Shown: positions 30,098-44,048 of the stretch, one piece after another
Layout of the letters: the number at the start of each line of letters is the position of its first letter
Position numbering within the stretch: position 1 is the first letter of the stretch
Origin: Escherichia phage JEP6
Sequence record: MT764206.1
DNA: 64,000 nucleotides
Strand: one strand, 5' to 3'
Notes under the pieces: model-generated
The model's database searches: none
Told to the model about the DNA's origin: nothing
The model's input: the letters and a program-made list of their open reading frames with translations, nothing else
Made by a program: the position numbers and the translations under genes

Positions 30098-30311
30098 ATT
30101 TGACTTCCTCACCAGTACATAAATCATATTCAACTAAACGAATAGGTTCATGAATGCCATATCCTTGAACAGAAATTTCTGTAGTAGGATAAATTCCATC
30201 AATATCGCCCATATTCCACGCTTCATTAAATTGCTGTTCGCCTGAATTACTAAACCATTCGGCGAAAGCATTTAGCACATCTTCAGAACCTTCAATAATT
30301 ATCTTTGCCAT
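30090..30311 (-). CDS. hypothetical protein (vs.5 position)
   Basis: ORF track 73 aa. Confidence 0.45.
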   Translation of the reverse strand: MAKIIIEGSEDVLNAFAEWFSNSGEQQFNEAWNMGDIDGIYPTTEISVQGYGIHEPIRLVEYDLCTGEEVKYD

Positions 30312-30673
30312 TACAAACTCTCGGTAAAGGTACGAGCGATAACGTCGCGCTGCTGTTCCGGAGTCAGAGAGTTAAAGCGAACTGCATAACCGGATACACG
30401 GATGGTCAGCTGCGGATATTTTTCCGGATGCTTAACTGCATCTTCCAGAGTTTCACGACGCAGAACGTTAACGTTCAGGTGTTGACCACCTTCAATTTTA
30501 ACTGTAGGCTGTTGCTCAATTTCAATTTCACGGGCATGCAAACCGTAGAAAATTTCTGGGTCTACAAAAGAGTCCTCTTTAAAGGTTTTAGAAACGATAA
30601 TTCGTGCTTGAATACCATCTTCAAAATAAATAGTACCTTTATGTGTGCCTTCAAGAATTTGATATGCTTTCAT
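30311..30673 (-). CDS. autonomous glycyl radical cofactor (GrcA/YfiD-like)
   Basis: 120 aa; C-terminal ~60 aa ([59 protein letters not shown]) essentially identical to recalled E. coli GrcA, including glycyl-radical RVSGY. Confidence 0.8.
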
Positions 30674-30680
30674 ATAAACC

Positions 30681-31010
30681 TCAATTAGAAAATAAATTTA
30701 TCCAAGATTGTTCTTTAATTAAAAATGGCTCAGAATCATATGCCATTAAACTCTGTGTGATTAGTCCTTTAAAAGGCCCATCAATAAATTCCATGGTAAA
30801 ATATGGAATTTTATTCATTAGCCGTGCATTAGGAGCAGTACACAAAACTCTGCATCCTTTGAATACACCTTTTTGTAATTTGTATTGCTTAGGATAAAAT
30901 TCACTTAAAATGTTATTTTTTGCCAAAATTTCAAAATGATTCACCAATTTATTTTTAATAGTTTTTGGCGAAAAATAAAGATATTCGAAAAGCTGAGTGT
31001 CTGTCATCAT
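30681..31010 (-). CDS. hypothetical protein
   Basis: 109 aa from ATG 31010 (ATGA overlap with upstream stop); track start 31061 is an extension. Confidence 0.45.
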
Positions 31011-31546
31011 TGCATTCCGATTACGAAAAACTGCGGACGAGTAATACCACCAATACAACATTTAATATTACAGCAGCAGTGTACAGTGTCAATGTGGACA
31101 CTATAAATCTTATCCATATCAGGAGATTTGACAGGCTCATCAATTATATATAAAATTCGCGAAAGCGATAAACCTCTGAACTTGCTTCCTTTATTACCAA
31201 TAAAACTGCGCACAGAATCAGTAAATAAACGAAAACGTATATCATCATTAGAATAACGCGAAAATTCCTTTTTAATGTTATTTGCAGAAATTTTAGCGTA
31301 AGCTGAAGTATTAGAAAGAACAATAACCGTTCCGCCATCATATAACCAATTAGCAGCAAAGTTAGTCACAGCAATTGATTTACCTGATTGACGTCCACCA
31401 TCTAGTCGAAGTGTGCAATACTGTTTAAGTAAGTCTTCAAATGGTGGGACATAACCGTTCTTACAAATTTCTTCTACTCTAGCATCAGAATGGTGTGTAA
31501 AAGCATTCATCAGGGATAGATAAGGTCCAGTTAAAAATGTTCTCAT
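31007..31546 (-). CDS. small P-loop NTPase with Cys-rich C-terminus
   Basis: 179 aa; Walker A GGRQSGKS, Walker B LYIIDEP; occupies the position where T4 has denV. Confidence 0.5.
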   Translation of the reverse strand: MRTFLTGPYLSLMNAFTHHSDARVEEICKNGYVPPFEDLLKQYCTLRLDGGRQSGKSIAVTNFAANWLYDGGTVIVLSNTSAYAKISANNIKKEFSRYSNDDIRFRLFTDSVRSFIGNKGSKFRGLSLSRILYIIDEPVKSPDMDKIYSVHIDTVHCCCNIKCCIGGITRPQFFVIGMQ

Positions 31547-31627
31547 TTAGTTTCTCTTTTAGGTTGGGCCATTCCGTGGCGCATGAATTGTCCATTTCTG
31601 TATTTACCCCTCCAAGTAATTATGAAT

Positions 31628-31657
31628 ATACTATCACAATTCTAGGAGAAAGTAAAC
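31628..31657 (-). promoter_or_regulatory. T4-type early promoter (GTTTAC-N18-TAGTAT)
   Basis: conserved element between ipII stop and ORF start 31546. Confidence 0.55.
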
Positions 31658-31659
31658 TG

Positions 31660-31962
31660 TTATTTACCTTTAATTACTTTAGCTGCTTCGATAGCCGCTT
31701 GCTGAAGGTCATCCATAGACATACCGAATTTAGAAGCAAAGTTATCAATTTTCTTTTCGACAGCATTCAAAGGCTTGGCCTGTTTACCTTCATTAGCGCC
31801 AGGAAGAGCGAGAATACGCTCTTTGTCAATATAAAGGCTTACAAGTTTCTTACGGTCTTTATCGGACAAATCATGAAATGAATGGGCCTTTTTATTTATA
31901 GCGGCTTCTAATTTACCTGCACTCACTCGCGCTTCAGTAATAAATTCTTGATATGTTTTCAT
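31660..31962 (-). CDS. ipII: internal protein II
   Basis: 100 aa; N-terminal capsid-targeting sequence MKTYQEFITEA; matches recalled T4 IPII. Confidence 0.85.
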   Translation of the reverse strand: MKTYQEFITEARVSAGKLEAAINKKAHSFHDLSDKDRKKLVSLYIDKERILALPGANEGKQAKPLNAVEKKIDNFASKFGMSMDDLQQAAIEAAKVIKGK

Positions 31963-32021
31963 ATGTTTCCTTTAAATGTAAATATTTTAATTGGTAATTG
32001 ACTGTTTAAGTAACTGTGAAT

Positions 32022-32051
32022 ATATTATCACAATTCTAAGAGAAAGTAAAC
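32022..32051 (-). promoter_or_regulatory. T4-type early promoter (GTTTAC-N18-TAATAT)
   Basis: conserved element between e stop and ipII start. Confidence 0.55.
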
Positions 32052-32056
32052 TGCTT

Positions 32057-32581
<525 letters not shown>

Positions 32582-33037
32582 TTAAAAGAGGTTGTTCATT
32601 ATTCGGTAAAGTGAAGGACCCATCACATATTGCCACTGAGTACGAGGAATAAGAGCAAAAGCGTCCATCTCTGGAATCATAACACCATCTTTATTTTCAA
32701 AATAAGACTCGCAATGGCAATTTCTAAACATCTCATGCTCTACTGGAATCGTATAATAAAATAGCTGTAAGTCTTTATTACTAGAATATTTAAATACACC
32801 TAGGTCTTCTAGAAGGTCTGGATTATAATTGCTAAAACCGGTCTCTTCTAAGCATTCTCTTTTTGCAGCTTCCAGTGCATTCAAATCAGAACTTTCTACA
32901 CGGCCCTTTGGAATATCCCAGCGGTGTGCCATCATTCCAGGCTTACGAGAACCAGTAACCCGACCCATAAATAAATCTTTATCTTCTGTCATAAAGATAA
33001 TACCAGCTGATAAGGTTTTCATTTTAATTTCCTGCAT
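32582..33037 (-). CDS. nudE: Nudix hydrolase
   Basis: 151 aa; Nudix box GRVESSDLNALEAAKRECLEETGF; alternative start at second ATG 33022 (AGGAAA RBS). Confidence 0.8.
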   Translation of the reverse strand: MQEIKMKTLSAGIIFMTEDKDLFMGRVTGSRKPGMMAHRWDIPKGRVESSDLNALEAAKRECLEETGFSNYNPDLLEDLGVFKYSSNKDLQLFYYTIPVEHEMFRNCHCESYFENKDGVMIPEMDAFALIPRTQWQYVMGPSLYRIMNNLF

Positions 33038-33507
33038 TCAGTGATAAAGTTATTTAAATTTTGAGCATATTTCTTTTCATCAAAAATCTTTTGCTGTCTG
33101 CGTAAACGCCATGGCATTTCAATGAACATACGCCATATTCCTGATAATACTGCTGCTGTAAAAATATTAACAAGTATAGTTAAAAGAACCCAATCTCCTA
33201 TTCTGTCCATTGGATTTTTTATAAAAAAGTAAAATACGAACGATGATATAGGAAGACTAATGATATACCACAGAATAACCTTCTTATCTGTGAACCAATC
33301 GGCATTCGTTAACTTAGCGCGACCATTTTGAATACACACGAATTTATCATCTGTTACAGTAAATGGTTTAGCTGCTTGATATCCCATTCTAAACTCCCTA
33401 ATTAATCGTTTCTTTGTATCTTCGGAACAACCATTCCAATCAACTCTATCAACTGAAATGCCATCATCCCCATCATCTAAATCATACCAGCGAGTTTTTA
33501 AAATCAT
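33019..33507 (-). CDS. hypothetical membrane protein
   Basis: 162 aa; two hydrophobic helices; C-terminal FITECRKLK junction motif. Confidence 0.5.
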   Translation of the reverse strand: MILKTRWYDLDDGDDGISVDRVDWNGCSEDTKKRLIREFRMGYQAAKPFTVTDDKFVCIQNGRAKLTNADWFTDKKVILWYIISLPISSFVFYFFIKNPMDRIGDWVLLTILVNIFTAAVLSGIWRMFIEMPWRLRRQQKIFDEKKYAQNLNNFITECRKLK

Positions 33508-37454: not shown

Positions 37455-37805
37455 TTAATATTCTTTTAAAGAATCAATATATTCACGGCGTTTACGCCAC
37501 AAATCAATTGCTTCATACGCGGATTCAGCATTTCGAATTAGCCGGCATTTATGTAAAGACTTATGATTTTGATATTGTGTAGATAACGGAATTGTATCTA
37601 AAAGGTCTTTACGATCAAAATATTCGTAACCATCTAAACCAAATGAACGATTTTTGAGAAATTGCCAATGACCATATTCGTTTTCGACATAAACATAATC
37701 TGCATGCTGATAAAGCAAATTAATTACACGTTCAGAAATAACAGTATCATTATGATTAAAATAGAATGTTAAATCATGAACTACTAAATAAACATTACCT
37801 TTCAT
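37455..37805 (-). CDS. hypothetical protein inside the tRNA operon
   Basis: 116 aa from ATG 37805 with GAGGA RBS; track start 37853 would overlap tRNA-Arg. Confidence 0.45.
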   Translation of the reverse strand: MKGNVYLVVHDLTFYFNHNDTVISERVINLLYQHADYVYVENEYGHWQFLKNRSFGLDGYEYFDRKDLLDTIPLSTQYQNHKSLHKCRLIRNAESAYEAIDLWRKRREYIDSLKEY

Positions 37806-38610: not shown

Positions 38611-38682
38611 TGGCCCTGGGTGGAATTGAACCACCATCTGGCGATTATGAGTCGCTTGCTTGAACCTTCCAGCTACAGGGCC
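38611..38682 (-). tRNA. tRNA-Ile (anticodon CAU; lysidine-type AUA reader, Met not excluded)
   Basis: manual fold: acceptor GGCCCTG/CAGGGCC, anticodon loop CTCATAA, T-loop TTCAATT; no encoded CCA. Confidence 0.7.
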
Positions 38683-39020: not shown

Positions 39021-39107
39021 TGGTGCGAGAAGTGGGACTCGAACCCACAAGGAAATCATTCCGCAGCATTTTAAGTGCTGTGCCTTTACCAATTTGACCA
39101 TTCTCGC
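39021..39107 (-). tRNA. tRNA-Leu (anticodon UAA), type II
   Basis: acceptor GCGAGAA/TTCTCGC, anticodon stem CAGCA/TGCTG loop CTTAAAA, long variable arm, T-loop TTCGAGT, CCA encoded. Confidence 0.8.
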
Positions 39108-39113
39108 GTTATA

Positions 39114-39746
39114 TTATTTATTACGTGAAAAAGACTGTTCTATCAATTCTGGACACTTTCGTTCTATCCATTTTCTAGCTTTTTGTGGGCTTATACCTAT
39201 TATTTTAGCAGCTTTACTAACCCATCCAAATTTAGAATAATCGATTTTAACTAATTCTTCGTAAATTTCATCAGTTAAAATCTTTTCATTAATATTTACC
39301 AGTAAATGATATAATTTGTTATCATTAGCAATTTTAATGAATCTTTTATAGTTTCCGCCTTTACTTAAACCTAATGAAGTAATTGCAGATGATATAGTAG
39401 CCGAATTTAATAATGCGTTTAAAATTTCTTCATCACTAACATTATAACGCTTTTTATTATTTTTAATATTTTTACCAGCAAAAGTATCAGTTTGCGAGTG
39501 ACAGTTTGGACATAATAATCTTAAATTTGATTTAAGATGATTTTTGTTATTTCCATCAATATGGTCTAATTGCAGAACAATATGCTTATTTTGCCATTTT
39601 GAAATTTTACAAATTGCACACTCATATGGAAAAATATTTTCTTTTATTATTTTGTCTTTCAGCTTTCCTGTGCTAAAATTTGGGTGTTTTCCTTCAAAAA
39701 TTTCAGCTAATTTAGTATCCATAATATGATTCCCAATTATTAACAA
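39114..39746 (-). CDS. HNH homing endonuclease (Mob-like) immediately upstream of the tRNA cluster
   Basis: 210 aa; HNH motif LQLDHIDGNNKNHLKSNLRLLCPNCH. Confidence 0.7.
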   Translation of the reverse strand: MLIIGNHIMDTKLAEIFEGKHPNFSTGKLKDKIIKENIFPYECAICKISKWQNKHIVLQLDHIDGNNKNHLKSNLRLLCPNCHSQTDTFAGKNIKNNKKRYNVSDEEILNALLNSATISSAITSLGLSKGGNYKRFIKIANDNKLYHLLVNINEKILTDEIYEELVKIDYSKFGWVSKAAKIIGISPQKARKWIERKCPELIEQSFSRNK

Positions 39747-39832
39747 AGGCTCTCAAACAAGAACCCTTGATGATAGAGGGTATTAATCAGTGCGGTACGA
39801 GTTAATAATAACAAATAATTCTTAAAGCATAT

Positions 39833-40126
39833 TTACCATTTATGATGATACATATTTACGATGCATTCAAGACCCAAAGGATTCTTGAAAATATCATATT
39901 CAAGAGGACCTTTTTCTGTTTCAATAAAGAAATCAAAATTTACTGTATTAAATTTACGGTCTTCCTTCACTAATTTAACTTGAGAAGATGAACGGTCAAT
40001 GTAAACCTTTTCAACTTCAAAACATGTTAAAATGCCATAATCATCAATCAAGGCTTTAGCAGCATCTTGATCATATTTATATCCATTTTCAACGGACGAT
40101 ACTTTCGCATAAAGAATCATTATCAA
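39833..40126 (-). CDS. hypothetical protein
   Basis: ORF track 97 aa. Confidence 0.45.
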   Translation of the reverse strand: MIMILYAKVSSVENGYKYDQDAAKALIDDYGILTCFEVEKVYIDRSSSQVKLVKEDRKFNTVNFDFFIETEKGPLEYDIFKNPLGLECIVNMYHHKW

Positions 40127-40536
40127 CCTTCATCAACAATAGTATGCGTATTGGCATTTACAATTTGCCACCAATCAAATCGATTAGAACCATACATCGG
40201 TTTGTTTTCATTTTCTTTAATAATGTCACGGAGTTCATCTTCAGTGGCGGCTTTCGCGATTAAATCAGCATATCCACCACGAGGATAATAATTATCACCT
40301 GCAAAAAGTAAAAAGTTTGGTTTAATGTTATTGAACTCTTCAAGAGTAATAACTTTTCCTGTTGGTTGAACAATCTCTACATATTTATATCCCAATTTTT
40401 GAGCAGCATCTACTGCTTCAAGCAAAGTATCATGAGCCCATCCTATTTGACAATTCGGCTTTTTAGATGGATTAGCCTGATAATCCGCGTACACTTTATA
40501 CATTCTATTCACCTTTAGAAATTTTATCCATAACAA
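40123..40536 (-). CDS. hypothetical protein; start probably internal (MYKVYADYQ, about 40503)
   Basis: ORF track 137 aa. Confidence 0.45.
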   Translation of the reverse strand: MLWIKFLKVNRMYKVYADYQANPSKKPNCQIGWAHDTLLEAVDAAQKLGYKYVEIVQPTGKVITLEEFNNIKPNFLLFAGDNYYPRGGYADLIAKAATEDELRDIIKENENKPMYGSNRFDWWQIVNANTHTIVDEG

Positions 40537-40690
40537 TAGCGATTAAACCAATTAAAAATGCTACTACAAGTGAAAACACGTTTTCTGCTGTAGTCAATAA
40601 TCCGCATATAAATCCAACAAACATTGAAAAACTAAAAGCAGAAGCAGAAATTGCAATAGCAACATTTCGAATTAATTCACAACGTTTCAT
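40505..40690 (-). CDS. hypothetical small membrane protein
   Basis: 61 aa, largely hydrophobic; early promoter upstream. Confidence 0.45.
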   Translation of the reverse strand: MKRCELIRNVAIAISASAFSFSMFVGFICGLLTTAENVFSLVVAFLIGLIAIVMDKISKGE

Positions 40691-40718
40691 TTTATTCTCC
40701 TCAGTAGTTGATAGGGTA

Positions 40719-40748
40719 ATAGTATCACAACTAAAACCCTATGTAAAC
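40719..40748 (-). promoter_or_regulatory. T4-type early promoter (GTTTACA-N17-TACTAT)
   Basis: conserved element upstream of ORF start 40690. Confidence 0.6.
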
Positions 40749-40766
40749 AACTTTGTGAAATATTTA

Positions 40767-41054
40767 TTACAAAAGATTTTTAGCAATAATTTTGAGCTGA
40801 GCTACTGAAATATGCTTGGCTTTAAACAACGCAGTTTCTTCAGCAGGAGAGATAACGATTGTAGCACCATCCTTTTTAGCAGACCACCCATCGCCTAGGT
40901 AAACAGTACCTTTGATTTCTTCGCCATCAACCAGACTAATCATTGGTTTACCTTCTCGTCCTTTATTTGCTTTAATAACTTCAGAAGTAAGAGTAGCTTC
41001 GGTAATGGTAGAAACCGGGGTAGTTGTAGAAGTAAACTCTTTGAAAGTTTTCAT
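40767..41054 (-). CDS. internal-protein-I-like small protein (ipI locus)
   Basis: 95 aa; N-terminal MKTFKEFTS CTS-like leader; position between 57B and the tRNA region. Confidence 0.55.
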   Translation of the reverse strand: MKTFKEFTSTTTPVSTITEATLTSEVIKANKGREGKPMISLVDGEEIKGTVYLGDGWSAKKDGATIVISPAEETALFKAKHISVAQLKIIAKNLL

Positions 41055-41084
41055 TTTATTTTCCTAATTAATTTTGATGAGATA

Positions 41085-41114
41085 ATAGTATCACTACCTC
41101 ATCAGCATGTAAAC
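41085..41114 (-). promoter_or_regulatory. T4-type early promoter (GTTTACA-N17-TACTAT)
   Basis: conserved element about 30 nt upstream of ipI-like ATG. Confidence 0.6.
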
Positions 41115-41126
41115 AACTTTGTGAAA

Positions 41127-41823
<697 letters not shown>

Positions 41824-41824
<1 letters not shown>

Positions 41825-42537
41825 TATAGTACCTTTAGTGTATTTTTAATTTTAGAAAAAAGTTCTTCAAGAGAACCATCGTTTGTAATTACTAAATCGC
41901 CATCACGAATTGGCAATCCAGCTTCTGTAATATGTGTATCATTGGATTTTTGACCAGGACGAACTACATGAATTACTGTAGCACCCATCGCCCTAGCCGC
42001 ATCCATTTCATGATCTTGACGAGTATCAGGAACGATATAATAATCATAACCTGAGTTAAATTTATCAAGATAATCTAAAGCAAATAATTTTACCCAATAC
42101 ATGCGGTCGAAGTTATTAACAATCAAATCCGTACCTAGGGCTTGCATCAGACGACGGACTGACCATTGATCTTCAATATTATTTATAACGTCAGCAATCT
42201 TATTAAATGCTACGAAATTAACTGCGTCATCAAAAACAAATACGCCTTTAATTGGGCTTTTACTATTAAGATAGCAAAATGCTTGTTCCATAATCGTAAT
42301 TACTTCTAATTTAGTCAGATTTAAATTAGTCTCACGATCATAGTCAATTCCTTCAAACTCTTTACGAGTTAAGCAAGGATAGTCAGTGCTTGCTGCAAAT
42401 ACACCCCATGCATAAGCCAATGCATCTTTAATAGGACCAGCAAGTTGATATTTAACTGCAGAATAATTTTCCATGATAAAATCTGCAGTAGTATCTTTTC
42501 CACTACGCTTTACACCACTTAAAAAGATTAGTTTCAT
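41824..42537 (-). CDS. 1: deoxynucleoside monophosphate kinase gp1
   Basis: 237 aa; P-loop GVKRSGKDT. Confidence 0.85.
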
Positions 42538-42586
42538 ATGTTTCTCCTCAAATTTAGTTAAGATTATAACACATGAAACTGAAGCA

Positions 42587-43117
42587 TTAAACTTCTGCTA
42601 TAATTTTGCCATCTTTTTCTACTTGAAAATACGTATAAGGAATCGTTGCTGTACATACTAAAGCCGGGTCTGAATCTTCCGTGTAGCTAAATTCTACTTC
42701 AGACAGGTCAGAAACCCAAGGCTTATAAAAATTTATTGACATCACGATTTCAGTTTTACTGTTATCTAAAATGTAAAGCGTAATGTATTCAGGACCTGTT
42801 TTTTGGGCAGTATTTTCGCCTGTAAGATAGTTACTAGTTCCTAGCATCCATTCATACATTCCTATCCACGACTTAAGTTCTTCATCAACTATAAATCTCA
42901 CGATGAGTGGATCGTACTCAAATGTAACTCCTGGACGCTGTGCTCTACCTAGTCCAAACGGCCCAGTCACGGTATCAGTAACAGGTATCCTAATTCCCGG
43001 AATAGGAACTGACTGAGCATTTAAAGTAAAAGCAGATGTAGTATTACTATGCGGTATTGATACTACAAAGTTAGTTGTATTTGCTTGGTTAAAAATTTGT
43101 TGCAGTGCTTGCGACAT
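42587..43117 (-). CDS. 3: tail completion/sheath stabiliser gp3
   Basis: 176 aa from ATG 43117 (MSQALQQIFNQ...); track ORF is an upstream extension. Confidence 0.8.
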   Translation of the reverse strand: MSQALQQIFNQANTTNFVVSIPHSNTTSAFTLNAQSVPIPGIRIPVTDTVTGPFGLGRAQRPGVTFEYDPLIVRFIVDEELKSWIGMYEWMLGTSNYLTGENTAQKTGPEYITLYILDNSKTEIVMSINFYKPWVSDLSEVEFSYTEDSDPALVCTATIPYTYFQVEKDGKIIAEV

Positions 43118-43223
43118 ATATTCCTCATAATGCTTTATAAATGTTGGTGGTATAATGGGTCTAAGTCCCTTCCATTCAATTCCAATTAGAACAAACAACA
43201 GAAAAGAATGGAAGATAATAGAA

Positions 43224-44048
43224 TTAGATATTTGACCAGACTTTGTTTGCAGAGAAACGTTTTCCTTTTGAAACGAACTGCTGAAGTGGCATTAACACAA
43301 CGTTCGCCCAGTCTTTCGGGGCGATTTCAACAAGGCTACCCATAATATTACCAGGTATATATGCCTTAATCATTTGGTCTGCACCCCTAAATCCTTTCAC
43401 TTGACTCCAATCAATTTTTAATTTCGTTTTATTAGTAATAGTAGGTGTATTTGAATATTGCTTTAAAAGCTCTTCTAGAAACTGTTGACGAGCTTTAGGT
43501 GGAATATAGTGCAAGTTTAATCCATACATTAAATTATGCTTACCTAAACCAAGGTAAATTATCAAAGGAAATTTATCCCAGTAAGGAAGAGTTTCCTTGT
43601 GTTTAGCATCATAAGCAAAAGCATATATTCGTCCCGGCTGCGGGCGAACAACTTTATGTCCTTTTACCTGCTTAATAGTTTCAGCAAACCACTTTCTGGT
43701 TTTATTATTAATTGCTGCACCTTCATTACGAATTTTATCACGCAATGTTTGCCTGAATGAATTTATCATAAGCAGTTGTCTTTCTTGCTTATTGAGTTTA
43801 TTCATTGGTTTTGATTCAAGCTTTTGAATCTTTTCAGCTGTTTTAATTCCTGAAGCATATTTTGACATTGCCGAAGTAAACGTAGAGTATTTGATTCCTC
43901 TTTCTTCAGCAAATTGCTTTCCTGTCATTCCTTTTGCTTTGGCCTTTTTGTATTCAAGACCTATTTGAATCCATTTCTTTTCGTTTAATGATTGCTTAAC
44001 CTTTGGAACTTGGGGAGTGCTTTCATTAATTATTTGAAAAATAGCCAT
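43224..44048 (-). CDS. 2: DNA end protector protein gp2
   Basis: 274 aa; position between 4 and 3. Confidence 0.8.

Follow-up and report, generated by a model that had tools for sequence, protein, structure and literature searches.

A predicted T4-type ipI locus in Escherichia phage JEP6, with a non-T4 trna.3 allele and an adjoining HNH endonuclease cassette

Introduction

Does the cluster of small genes next to the tRNA genes of Escherichia phage JEP6 hold a new internal protein, or the one already known from T4? The initial annotation, made from the sequence alone, read the region as a variable ipI-type locus with a small protein bearing a leader like the capsid-targeting sequence (CTS), three unknown ORFs and a flanking HNH endonuclease gene. 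In T4, internal protein I (IPI) is present at about 360 copies per capsid, and a T4 delta-ip1 mutant is restricted >10^6-fold by Eco94GmrSD and rescued by co-expression of IPI (PMC4437046). Ip1 is specific for GmrSD-CT596 (PMC12373910), and the CTS and gp21 processing of T4 internal proteins are covered elsewhere (PMC9026906). The locus was analyzed within a window comprising the whole 64,000-nucleotide stretch of JEP6 DNA (MT764206.1).

Results

Identity of the locus

The region is almost certainly the canonical T4-type ipI locus of a Tequatrovirus, as judged from gene order and protein identity. All the ORFs described were present on the minus strand, the four small ones at the positions first given for them (Table 1), and the order 57B, ipI, trna.4, trna.3, trna.2 is that of phage T4 (NC_000866 72628-74410). 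Identities to the T4 proteins were 93/95 for IPI, 61/61 for Trna.4, 93/95 for Trna.2, 151/152 for 57B and 78/80 for 57A, and in a blastn mosaic the DNA was 93-97% identical to T4 on either side of two replaced segments. Differences from T4 were limited to the trna.3 allele, in its N-terminal half, and to the adjoining HNH cassette, both of which occur in many sequenced T4-like phages. All four small ORFs are real genes and match PHROG families (E 6e-35 to 1e-55). The three ORFs initially called unknown turned out to be T4's trna.2, trna.3 and trna.4 in T4 order, a constant and not a variable part of the locus; compared with their T4 counterparts (NP_049746-NP_049748, conserved hypothetical) they have the same order, spacing and strand, with Trna.4 100% and Trna.2 98% identical. 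Lengths of 95 aa for ipI and 61 aa for trna.4 stand as first given, but the ORFs reported as 97 aa and 137 aa are 95 aa and 126 aa, since the longest-ORF reading begins at upstream TTG codons. For trna.2 the ATG at 40120 is preceded by GAAGG and gives 95 aa, as in the HY03 annotation and T4 trna.2; for trna.3 the ATG at 40503 is preceded by AAGGTG and gives 126 aa, in agreement with the HY03 annotation, compared with 136 aa for T4 trna.3.

Table 1. Features of the JEP6 ipI locus and its flanks, in window coordinates.
Feature	Position	Strand	Description
HNH endonuclease cassette	39114..39735	-	ORF 39114-39722, 202 aa; replaces tRNA-Gln; flanks the ipI unit, not part of it
Terminator-like hairpin 3' of trna.2	39748..39766	-	GGGUUCUU-GUUU-GAGAGCC(U), then UUUGUU; would close the trna.4-trna.3-trna.2 unit
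trna.2	39833..40120	-	95 aa, acidic, soluble; T4 Trna.2 93/95; phrog_2023, E 8e-48
trna.3	40123..40503	-	126 aa; conserved C-terminal module ~62-126; N-terminal half (40319-40500) a non-T4 allele
trna.4	40505..40690	-	61 aa, hydrophobic; T4 Trna.4 61/61; phrog_1692, E 6e-35
Second PeSL cassette, ipI stop codon to trna.4	40685..40765	-	-35 TTTACA 40747-40742; -10 TACTAT 40724-40719, TG before -10
ipI	40767..41054	-	internal protein I precursor, 95 aa; T4 IPI 93/95; PF11634; PDB 2JUB; phrog_4363
Predicted mature IPI*	40997-40770 (residues 20-95)	-	76 aa, 8.1 kDa, pI 9.0
Predicted IPI capsid-targeting propeptide	41054-40998 (residues 1-19)	-	MKTFKEFTSTTTPVSTITE; I-x-E cleavage motif at end
PeSL cassette before ipI	41049..41132	-	-35 TTTACA 41113-41108; -10 TACTAT 41090-41085, TG before -10; 13-bp hairpin spans -10

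The internal protein

The 95-aa ORF does begin with MKTFKEFTS, as first noted, and this capsid-targeting leader is identical to that of T4, as is the cleavage junction (MKTFKEFTSTTTPVSTITE/ATLTSE), which matches an MKT-F/Y-x-E-F leader followed by the I/L-x-E motif of gp21; "CTS-like small protein" was an understatement for what is a canonical T4 IPI. Residues 20-95 matched the Pfam family PF11634 (IPI_T4) over profile positions 1-76 of 76 (E 5.4e-52, 174.1 bits against a 25-bit cutoff). Residues 1-76 of chain A of PDB 2JUB, the solved IPI*, aligned to the same stretch with 74 of 76 identical, and residue 1 of the structure coincides with the predicted mature N-terminus at residue 20. The ORF falls in phrog_4363, internal virion protein. 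Relative to T4 IPI (NP_049749; PDB 2JUB; PF11634) the length, the leader, the cleavage position and the slot between 57B and trna.4, adjoining the tRNA cluster, are all the same, and the differences are two conservative C-terminal substitutions, A84V and H86Q (A65V and H67Q in IPI* numbering). A tblastn search of the phage collection found IPI in 285 records, 188 of them at at least 90% identity, with an identical protein in Shigella phage Phaginator.

The initial annotation implied an internal-protein variant not seen before, differing in specificity from T4 IPI. The protein does depart from T4 IPI at V84 and Q86, internal proteins act with high specificity on particular GmrSD variants (PMC12373910), and the ipI slot is variable in relatives; nevertheless this reading is very improbable given full-length identity of 97.9% to T4 IPI and of 74/76 to the solved IPI*, the same or a near-identical protein in well over 100 sequenced phages, and the observation that truly different proteins of the ipI slot have the leader alone in common with it.

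Promoter/stem-loop cassettes and transcription

The proposal that the 95-aa ORF has its own early promoter held up. Directly upstream lies a sigma-70/T4-early type sequence, TTTACA-17 nt-TACTAT at 41113-41085, found by promoter scan and by direct reading, from which ipI would be transcribed within a promoter/stem-loop (PeSL) cassette whose hairpin folds at -14.8 kcal/mol (z = -2.65). The second cassette, after the ipI stop codon, would drive trna.4-trna.3-trna.2; its hairpin (ATAGGGT...ACCCTAT) encloses the -10 and folds at -20 kcal/mol (z = -2.94). When 41044-41140 was aligned with 40680-40775 the mean column identity was 86%, with a blastn repeat of ~84 bp, and both copies, at 41113-41085 and 40747-40719, fit the T4/PST PeSL consensus TTTACW-N17-TAYWAT (PMC4122927). 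At the site in SA20RB homologous to the second cassette, an early promoter overlapping a terminator has been annotated independently. Taken as a whole, the promoter scan did not exceed chance (24 sites vs 17.7 +/- 4.1 in shuffles), and the ipI promoter is credible because of where it lies, because it is duplicated ahead of trna.4 and because it agrees with the T4 consensus in the literature. A consensus promoter with an overlapping stem-loop is common to these cassettes and to the PeSL cassettes of T4-type phages (Arbiol et al. 2010, PMC2839356; Comeau et al. 2014, PMC4122927), and near-identical copies here likewise bracket a gene, ipI, that is exchanged between relatives, whereas recombination at the copies in the window is suggested by comparison and the stem sequences differ between its two copies.

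The stretch directly upstream of ipI has no copy of the T4 late promoter motif TATAAATA; on the minus strand the closest one in that direction is at 42180-42187, inside gene 1, and the count of the motif in the window did not exceed chance (15 vs 12.4 +/- 3.7). Late supply of IPI for prohead assembly would possibly come from read-through or continued early/middle transcription. The SA20RB site homologous to the hairpin 3' of trna.2 is annotated as a rho-independent terminator, but the whole intergenic region in the window folds no better than shuffles (z = 0.26), so the terminator call rests on position and homology. Rfam (E <= 0.1) gave no RNA elements in 39109-42000.

The trna genes

Trna.4 has two predicted membrane-spanning segments, at about residues 10-33 and 38-54 (GRAVY 1.22, from the hydropathy profile), and against Pfam gave a sub-threshold match to DUF7554 alone. 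The listed members of the Trna.2 family are all at least 73% identical, and the AlphaFold2 model of Trna.2 is of low confidence (pLDDT 55). Profile searches with Trna.2 and Trna.3 gave no Pfam match and no PDB-sequence hit at E <= 1; none of the three proteins matched NCBIfam, and a literature search for trna.2, trna.3, trna.4 or their accessions found nothing relevant.

Their small size and location at an internal-protein locus could suggest that these three are themselves packaged and injected internal proteins. This is scarcely conceivable, as none has the MKT[F/Y]xEF leader, a search of all six frames of the 64-kb window with the motif MK[ST][FY].[ED]F finding two ORFs only, ipI and an ipII-like ORF at 31660-31962; moreover Trna.4 is a predicted two-helix membrane protein, and Trna.2 and Trna.3 are acidic (pI about 5) whereas internal proteins are basic. 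Because the CTS motif is absent, Trna.2, Trna.3 and Trna.4 are, on this criterion, non-packaged early proteins.

Trna.3 belongs to phrog_1411 (E 1.3e-55 over residues 1-126), carries a precomputed Pfam tag, PF26894, which has no counterpart among the Pfam models searched here, and was conserved in 762 phage records (tblastn, phage collection). Compared with T4 Trna.3 its C-terminal half is close, while its N-terminal half is another allele and the protein is 10 residues shorter overall. The C-terminal motif NFLLFAGDNYYPxGG...DWWQIVNA is present and forms invariant columns in a 19-sequence alignment. The N-terminal half has been exchanged as a discrete segment, 40319-40500, amid DNA that is 93-97% identical; there are several allele classes, and the one in the window occurs at at least 90% identity in about 240 sequenced phages, including RB27, HY03 and slur03. 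A profile search showed the C-terminal ~63 aa to exist also as independent proteins of 60-100 aa (560 cluster representatives, E <= 1e-3), and relatives occur in distant phages (Staphylococcus, Erwinia). In a Foldseek comparison against viral models, the Trna.3 model matched uncharacterised phage proteins alone.

The two halves of Trna.3 give the impression, though it is an impression only, of a similar order of secondary structure. An internal duplication was considered and rejected, as hhalign of the N-terminal against the C-terminal half was not significant (E 0.65, 10 columns). There were no paralogues of either domain in the window.

The identification of the T4-type locus may be extended, tentatively, by the suggestion that trna.4, trna.3 and trna.2 act early in counter-defence or host takeover and form a small anti-defence island with ipI (anti-GmrSD) and 57B/Acb1 (anti-CBASS), in which the activity of Trna.3 would reside in its conserved C-terminal module and its target specificity in the exchangeable N-terminal domain. 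The three genes lie behind their own early promoter and adjoin two proven anti-defence genes, ipI and, one gene further on, 57B/Acb1; 57B matches Pfam Acb1 with E 2.6e-60 (PMC9117128). The discrete exchange of the N-terminal half among several allele classes and the recurrence of the C-terminal ~63 aa as stand-alone proteins, with relatives in distant phages, point the same way. The suggestion is nonetheless rather unlikely, since the trna proteins gave no Pfam, NCBIfam or PDB hit, the genes are constant across T4-like phages with Trna.2 and Trna.4 nearly invariant, which fits a housekeeping accessory role equally, and the neighbourhood of anti-defence genes is circumstantial. Somewhat more doubtful still is a narrower form, in which Trna.3, possibly with Trna.2 and Trna.4, would be an early counter-defence factor of two domains whose N-terminal domain is cassette-swapped among T4-like phages to retarget it; within it, the C-terminal module could belong to a large family of phage mini-proteins that occur on their own and have no known relative in fold.

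The HNH cassette

As first noted, the locus is flanked by a putative HNH endonuclease gene. Its ORF matched phrog_14736, "HNH endonuclease", with E 5e-124, alongside ten further PHROGs labelled endonuclease or uncharacterised, nine being HNH; against Pfam HNH it scored 17.3 bits, below the cutoff of 21.4, with a CxxC...HxD...N...CxxCH pattern around residues 43-84. When the T4 and window junctions were set side by side, only the first 7 nt of tRNA-Gln (TGGGAAT, 39735-39729) remained, and neither ARAGORN nor Rfam found a tRNA-Gln. The ORF occurs in 63 phage records at at least 95% aa identity, 58 of them at at least 99%, and the cassette is absent from T4 and SA20RB, which have tRNA-Gln there. 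Presence in some genomes and absence from others at a site that is otherwise conserved, with almost identical copies across genomes, is taken here as the mark of mobility. Like the free-standing HNH homing endonucleases of phage tRNA clusters, of which T5 hegA is an example, it is a predicted endonuclease ORF inside a tRNA cluster, and it is 35% identical to T5 hegA. It differs in replacing tRNA-Gln rather than sitting between tRNA genes. T4 SegB is the GIY-YIG counterpart of HNH homing endonucleases in tRNA clusters.

Discussion

Published work already covers this locus and its main gene, including how that gene acts and how the slot varies, and the window carries the T4 version. The initial annotation had set against its own proposal a locus that matched T4 ipI exactly and had no novel ORFs, and this is nearly what was found, the exceptions being the N-terminal allele of trna.3 and the HNH cassette. 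"Variable ipI-type locus" was apt in that this is an ipI locus and variable across relatives, but the window carries the T4 gene and not a new variant. The broader statement that the locus is hypervariable and encodes injected anti-restriction proteins is borne out by published work (PMC12373910, PMC4122927, bioRxiv 10.1101/2025.11.20.689424).

Variability of the ipI slot across phages was confirmed. There were other CTS-bearing genes between 57B and trna.4 in fPS-65, teqhad and Ozark, as insertions or replacements exactly there, and variability of the slot in relatives is also documented in bioRxiv 10.1101/2025.11.20.689424. The duplicated PeSL-type repeats are proposed to let T4-like phages exchange genes in the slot, which would account for relatives with other capsid-targeted proteins there. 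Ip2, Ip3, Bas37_0260 and the 77-aa PST-type IP have the N-terminal leader in common with IPI and follow the same logic, as injected inhibitors of type IV restriction (PMC12373910; bioRxiv 10.1101/2025.11.20.689424), whereas their mature parts are unrelated to IPI in sequence and none of these proteins occupies the ipI slot in the window.

From the T4 literature we infer packaging, cleavage, injection and GmrSD inhibition for the JEP6 protein. By identity with T4 IPI, the leader MKTFKEF... would direct IPI to the prohead scaffolding core, where the prohead protease gp21 would cleave after Glu19 (I-T-E/A) to leave the basic 76-residue IPI*. Each head would take in some 360 copies of IPI*, to be ejected along with the DNA, and in the infected cell IPI* would block the GmrSD-type (CT596/Eco94) type IV restriction nuclease, which would otherwise cut glucosyl-hydroxymethylcytosine DNA.

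The practical value of the finding is in annotation: the phage is predicted to resist GmrSD restriction of the CT596/Eco94 type, and the separate absence of ipIII suggests that it may be sensitive to GmrSD of the ECOR17 type.

Results

The window comes from the genome of a T4-like phage (Tequatrovirus), and its ipI locus is already known. In the phage collection the top match over 20 kb was Salmonella phage SG1 (97.8% identity, 94% coverage) and that for 1.5 kb around the locus was Escherichia phage HY03 (97.0%, full coverage), with at least 80% of the 1.5 kb covered by 168 phage records. Every gene of 39100-42600 lies on the minus strand, in an order exactly matching that of T4 (NC_000866: 1, 57A, 57B, ipI, trna.4, trna.3, trna.2, tRNA-Gln, tRNA-Leu...) and arranged as in the HY03 annotation. 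DNA identity with T4 was 92.7% over 39729-40318 and 96.6% over 40501-43500; the segments without a T4 counterpart were the N-terminal half of trna.3 (40319-40500) and an HNH cassette (39109-39728). Compared with T4 gp1, the gene 1 product (237 aa) lacks 4 residues and has one substitution next to the gap (DDEGKESVNF in T4, DDAVNF in the window).

Features of the ipI locus, its surroundings and related loci (start to end as transcribed where descending)
Feature	Coordinates	Strand	Position
gene 1, dNMP kinase	42537-41824	-	first in transcription order
57A	41824-41582	-	after gene 1
57B	41582-41127	-	after 57A
ipI, 95-aa ORF	41054-40767	-	after 57B
trna.4, 61-aa ORF	40690-40505	-	after ipI
trna.3, "137-aa" ORF	40503 (true start)-40123	-	after trna.4
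trna.3, C-terminal module	40123-40318	-	residues ~62-126
trna.2, "97-aa" ORF	40120 (true start)-39833	-	after trna.3
HNH endonuclease gene	39722-39114	-	after trna.2
HNH cassette replacing tRNA-Gln	39114-39735	-	
tRNA-Leu and six more tRNA genes		-	tRNA cluster, beyond HNH gene
Early promoter element, ipI	41113-41085		directly upstream of ipI
Early promoter element, trna.4	40747-40719		upstream of trna.4
Terminator-like hairpin	39766-39748	-	downstream of trna.2
Nearest upstream late promoter motif	42180-42187	-	inside gene 1
tRNA Met (anticodon CAT)	38611-38682	-	tRNA cluster
116-aa ORF (phrog_3355)	37455-37805	-	between rnaD-like region and tRNA-Arg
vs.8 to e	30253-33047	-	second internal-protein locus
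ipII-like gene	31660-31962	-	after vs.8
lysozyme e	32057-32545	-	after ipII-like gene
Other capsid-targeted proteins, ipI slot of Ozark, teqhad and fPS-65	L003 1853-2086; L006 978-1545; L007 1308-1541 (stretches of relatives' DNA)		

The initial annotation, which described a variable ipI-type locus with a CTS-like small protein and three unknown ORFs, named the right locus and was accurate in its observations save for two start codons; the novelty was overstated, the locus being essentially identical to T4 ipI with no novel ORFs. The 95-aa protein is canonical IPI, identical to that of T4 at 93/95 residues (V84 for T4 A, Q86 for T4 H) and matching Pfam IPI_T4 over residues 20-95 (E 5.4e-52). 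Residue 1 of the solved mature form, IPI* (2JUB), aligns to residue 20 with 74/76 identical, which makes residues 1-19 (MKTFKEFTSTTTPVSTITE) the propeptide, with an I-x-E motif at its end. The computed mature protein (76 residues, 8.1 kDa, pI 9.0) fits the basic internal protein of roughly 8 kDa in T4 (PMC9026906). Besides ipI, only one other ORF in the window, the ipII-like gene, carries the leader motif.

That ipI has its own early promoter, as had been proposed, is supported by position, duplication and published consensus, not by scan count; the promoter scan as a whole was not above chance (24 sites vs 17.7 +/- 4.1). TTTACA-17 nt-TACTAT with a TG extension precedes ipI, a near-identical element precedes trna.4, and both intergenic stretches contain an ~84 bp repeat, about 80% identical by blastn (mean column identity of the alignment 86%), with hairpins across the -10 element of -14.8 kcal/mol (z = -2.65) at ipI and -20 (z = -2.94) at trna.4. 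Both match the promoter-early stem-loop (PeSL) cassettes described in T4-type phages (T4/PST consensus TTTACW-N17-TAYWAT; PMC4122927), and in phage SA20RB an independent annotation marks the equivalent sites as early promoters that overlap terminators. Downstream of trna.2 lies a terminator-like hairpin. Directly before ipI there is no T4 late promoter motif, so that IPI is supplied late, for prohead assembly, is something we infer.

The three other ORFs are T4's own trna.4, trna.3 and trna.2, as uncharacterised in T4 as here. Lengths of 95 and 61 aa for ipI and trna.4 stood, while those of 137 and 97 aa had been counted from TTG codons further upstream; trna.3 and trna.2 really begin at ATGs behind Shine-Dalgarno sequences (AAGGTG and GAAGG, respectively), giving 126 and 95 aa as in the HY03 annotation. 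Trna.4 has two hydrophobic segments and is identical to its T4 counterpart (61/61). Trna.2, counted from its ATG, is an acidic, well conserved protein found in T4-like phages only (93/95 identical to T4; the AlphaFold2 model, at pLDDT 55, is unreliable). Trna.3 shares 75 identities over 143 aligned columns with T4, the C-terminal half being close and the N-terminal half far more diverged. Among 1.8 billion cluster representatives, a profile search found 560 matches at E <= 1e-3; of the best 150 listed, almost all were 55-160 aa long and aligned to profile positions ~64-127 only, sharing the motif FLLFAGDxYYPxGG...DWW(Q/H)IV. The C-terminal ~63 residues (FLLFAGDNYYPxGG...DWWQIVNA) belong to a large stand-alone phage protein family, with no fold relative in PDB, and Foldseek placed the module also in uncharacterised proteins of distant phages. 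Trna.3 thus joins a variable N-terminal domain to a mini-protein module that is widespread. One profile match, a protein of 2031 aa, contained 11 stretches that matched; no sequence evidence was obtained for internal duplication in Trna.3.

In T4 and SA20RB, ...TTGTTAATAAT is followed by tRNA-Gln (TGGGAATTAGCC...ATTCCCA) and tRNA-Leu; in the window ...TTGTTAATAAT is followed by TGGGAAT, CATATT and the ATG of the HNH ORF, the stop of which lies 6 nt before tRNA-Leu. Neither ARAGORN nor Rfam found a tRNA-Gln. The HNH cassette has therefore replaced the body of this tRNA, of which the first 7 nt (TGGGAAT) alone remain, and the phage appears to have no tRNA-Gln in its cluster. Outside T4-like phages the nearest relative of the HNH protein was T5 hegA (35% identity). 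Neither the cassette nor the trna.3 N-terminal segment is new, since the trna.3 allele occurred at >=90% protein identity in 243 phage records, RB27 included, and the HNH protein at >=95% in 63 records (>=99% in 58 phage records). The 116-aa ORF is inserted where T4 has nothing, and ARAGORN called tRNA Met at a position of the cluster where T4 has an annotated tRNA-Ile; if the two correspond, this may be an Ile tRNA with a CAT anticodon that was called as Met.

Discussion

Variability, claimed for this locus initially, holds across phages but not in the window, which has the T4 occupant. By tblastn, Trna.3 homologues occurred in 762 phage records and IPI in only 285, and therefore the slot between 57B and trna.4 changes while trna.4-trna.3-trna.2 stay. 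In Ozark a further protein, of 77 aa (MKTYQEFIAE...), is encoded between trna.4 and ipI, the slot of teqhad holds nothing but this protein, and that of fPS-65 holds it with an 85-aa protein (MKTFKEFATKTTITE...), the fPS-65 annotation predicting a separate early promoter for each. In phage Bas37 another gene of the slot inhibits McrBC (bioRxiv 10.1101/2025.11.20.689424, preprint).

The neighbouring 57B is Acb1, an anti-CBASS nuclease of 2H-phosphodiesterase type (Pfam E 2.6e-60; PMC9117128), so ipI adjoins another proven anti-defence gene; RefSeq records label 57B "RNA ligase". The Trna proteins are not themselves internal proteins, since a motif search found no capsid-targeting leader in any of the three. 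Given their early promoter and the proximity of ipI and 57B, it is a reasonable guess, if a rather unlikely one, that they act in counter-defence or host takeover.

If the IPI mechanism is transferred from T4 studies on the strength of 98% identity, the leader would direct IPI to the prohead core and be cut off by gp21 protease, about 360 copies of IPI* would be packaged and then ejected alongside DNA, and IPI* would neutralise GmrSD-type type IV restriction enzymes, cutters of glucosyl-hydroxymethylcytosine DNA. Ip1, Ip2 and Ip3 each block one different GmrSD variant, with no cross-protection (PMC12373910). The second internal-protein locus differs from that of T4 (vs.8-denV-ipII-ipIII-e), with vs.8, the ipII-like gene and e in succession, and tblastn found neither ipIII nor denV within the 64-kb window. 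Without Ip3, the phage would be predicted from the literature to be sensitive to ECOR17-type GmrSD.
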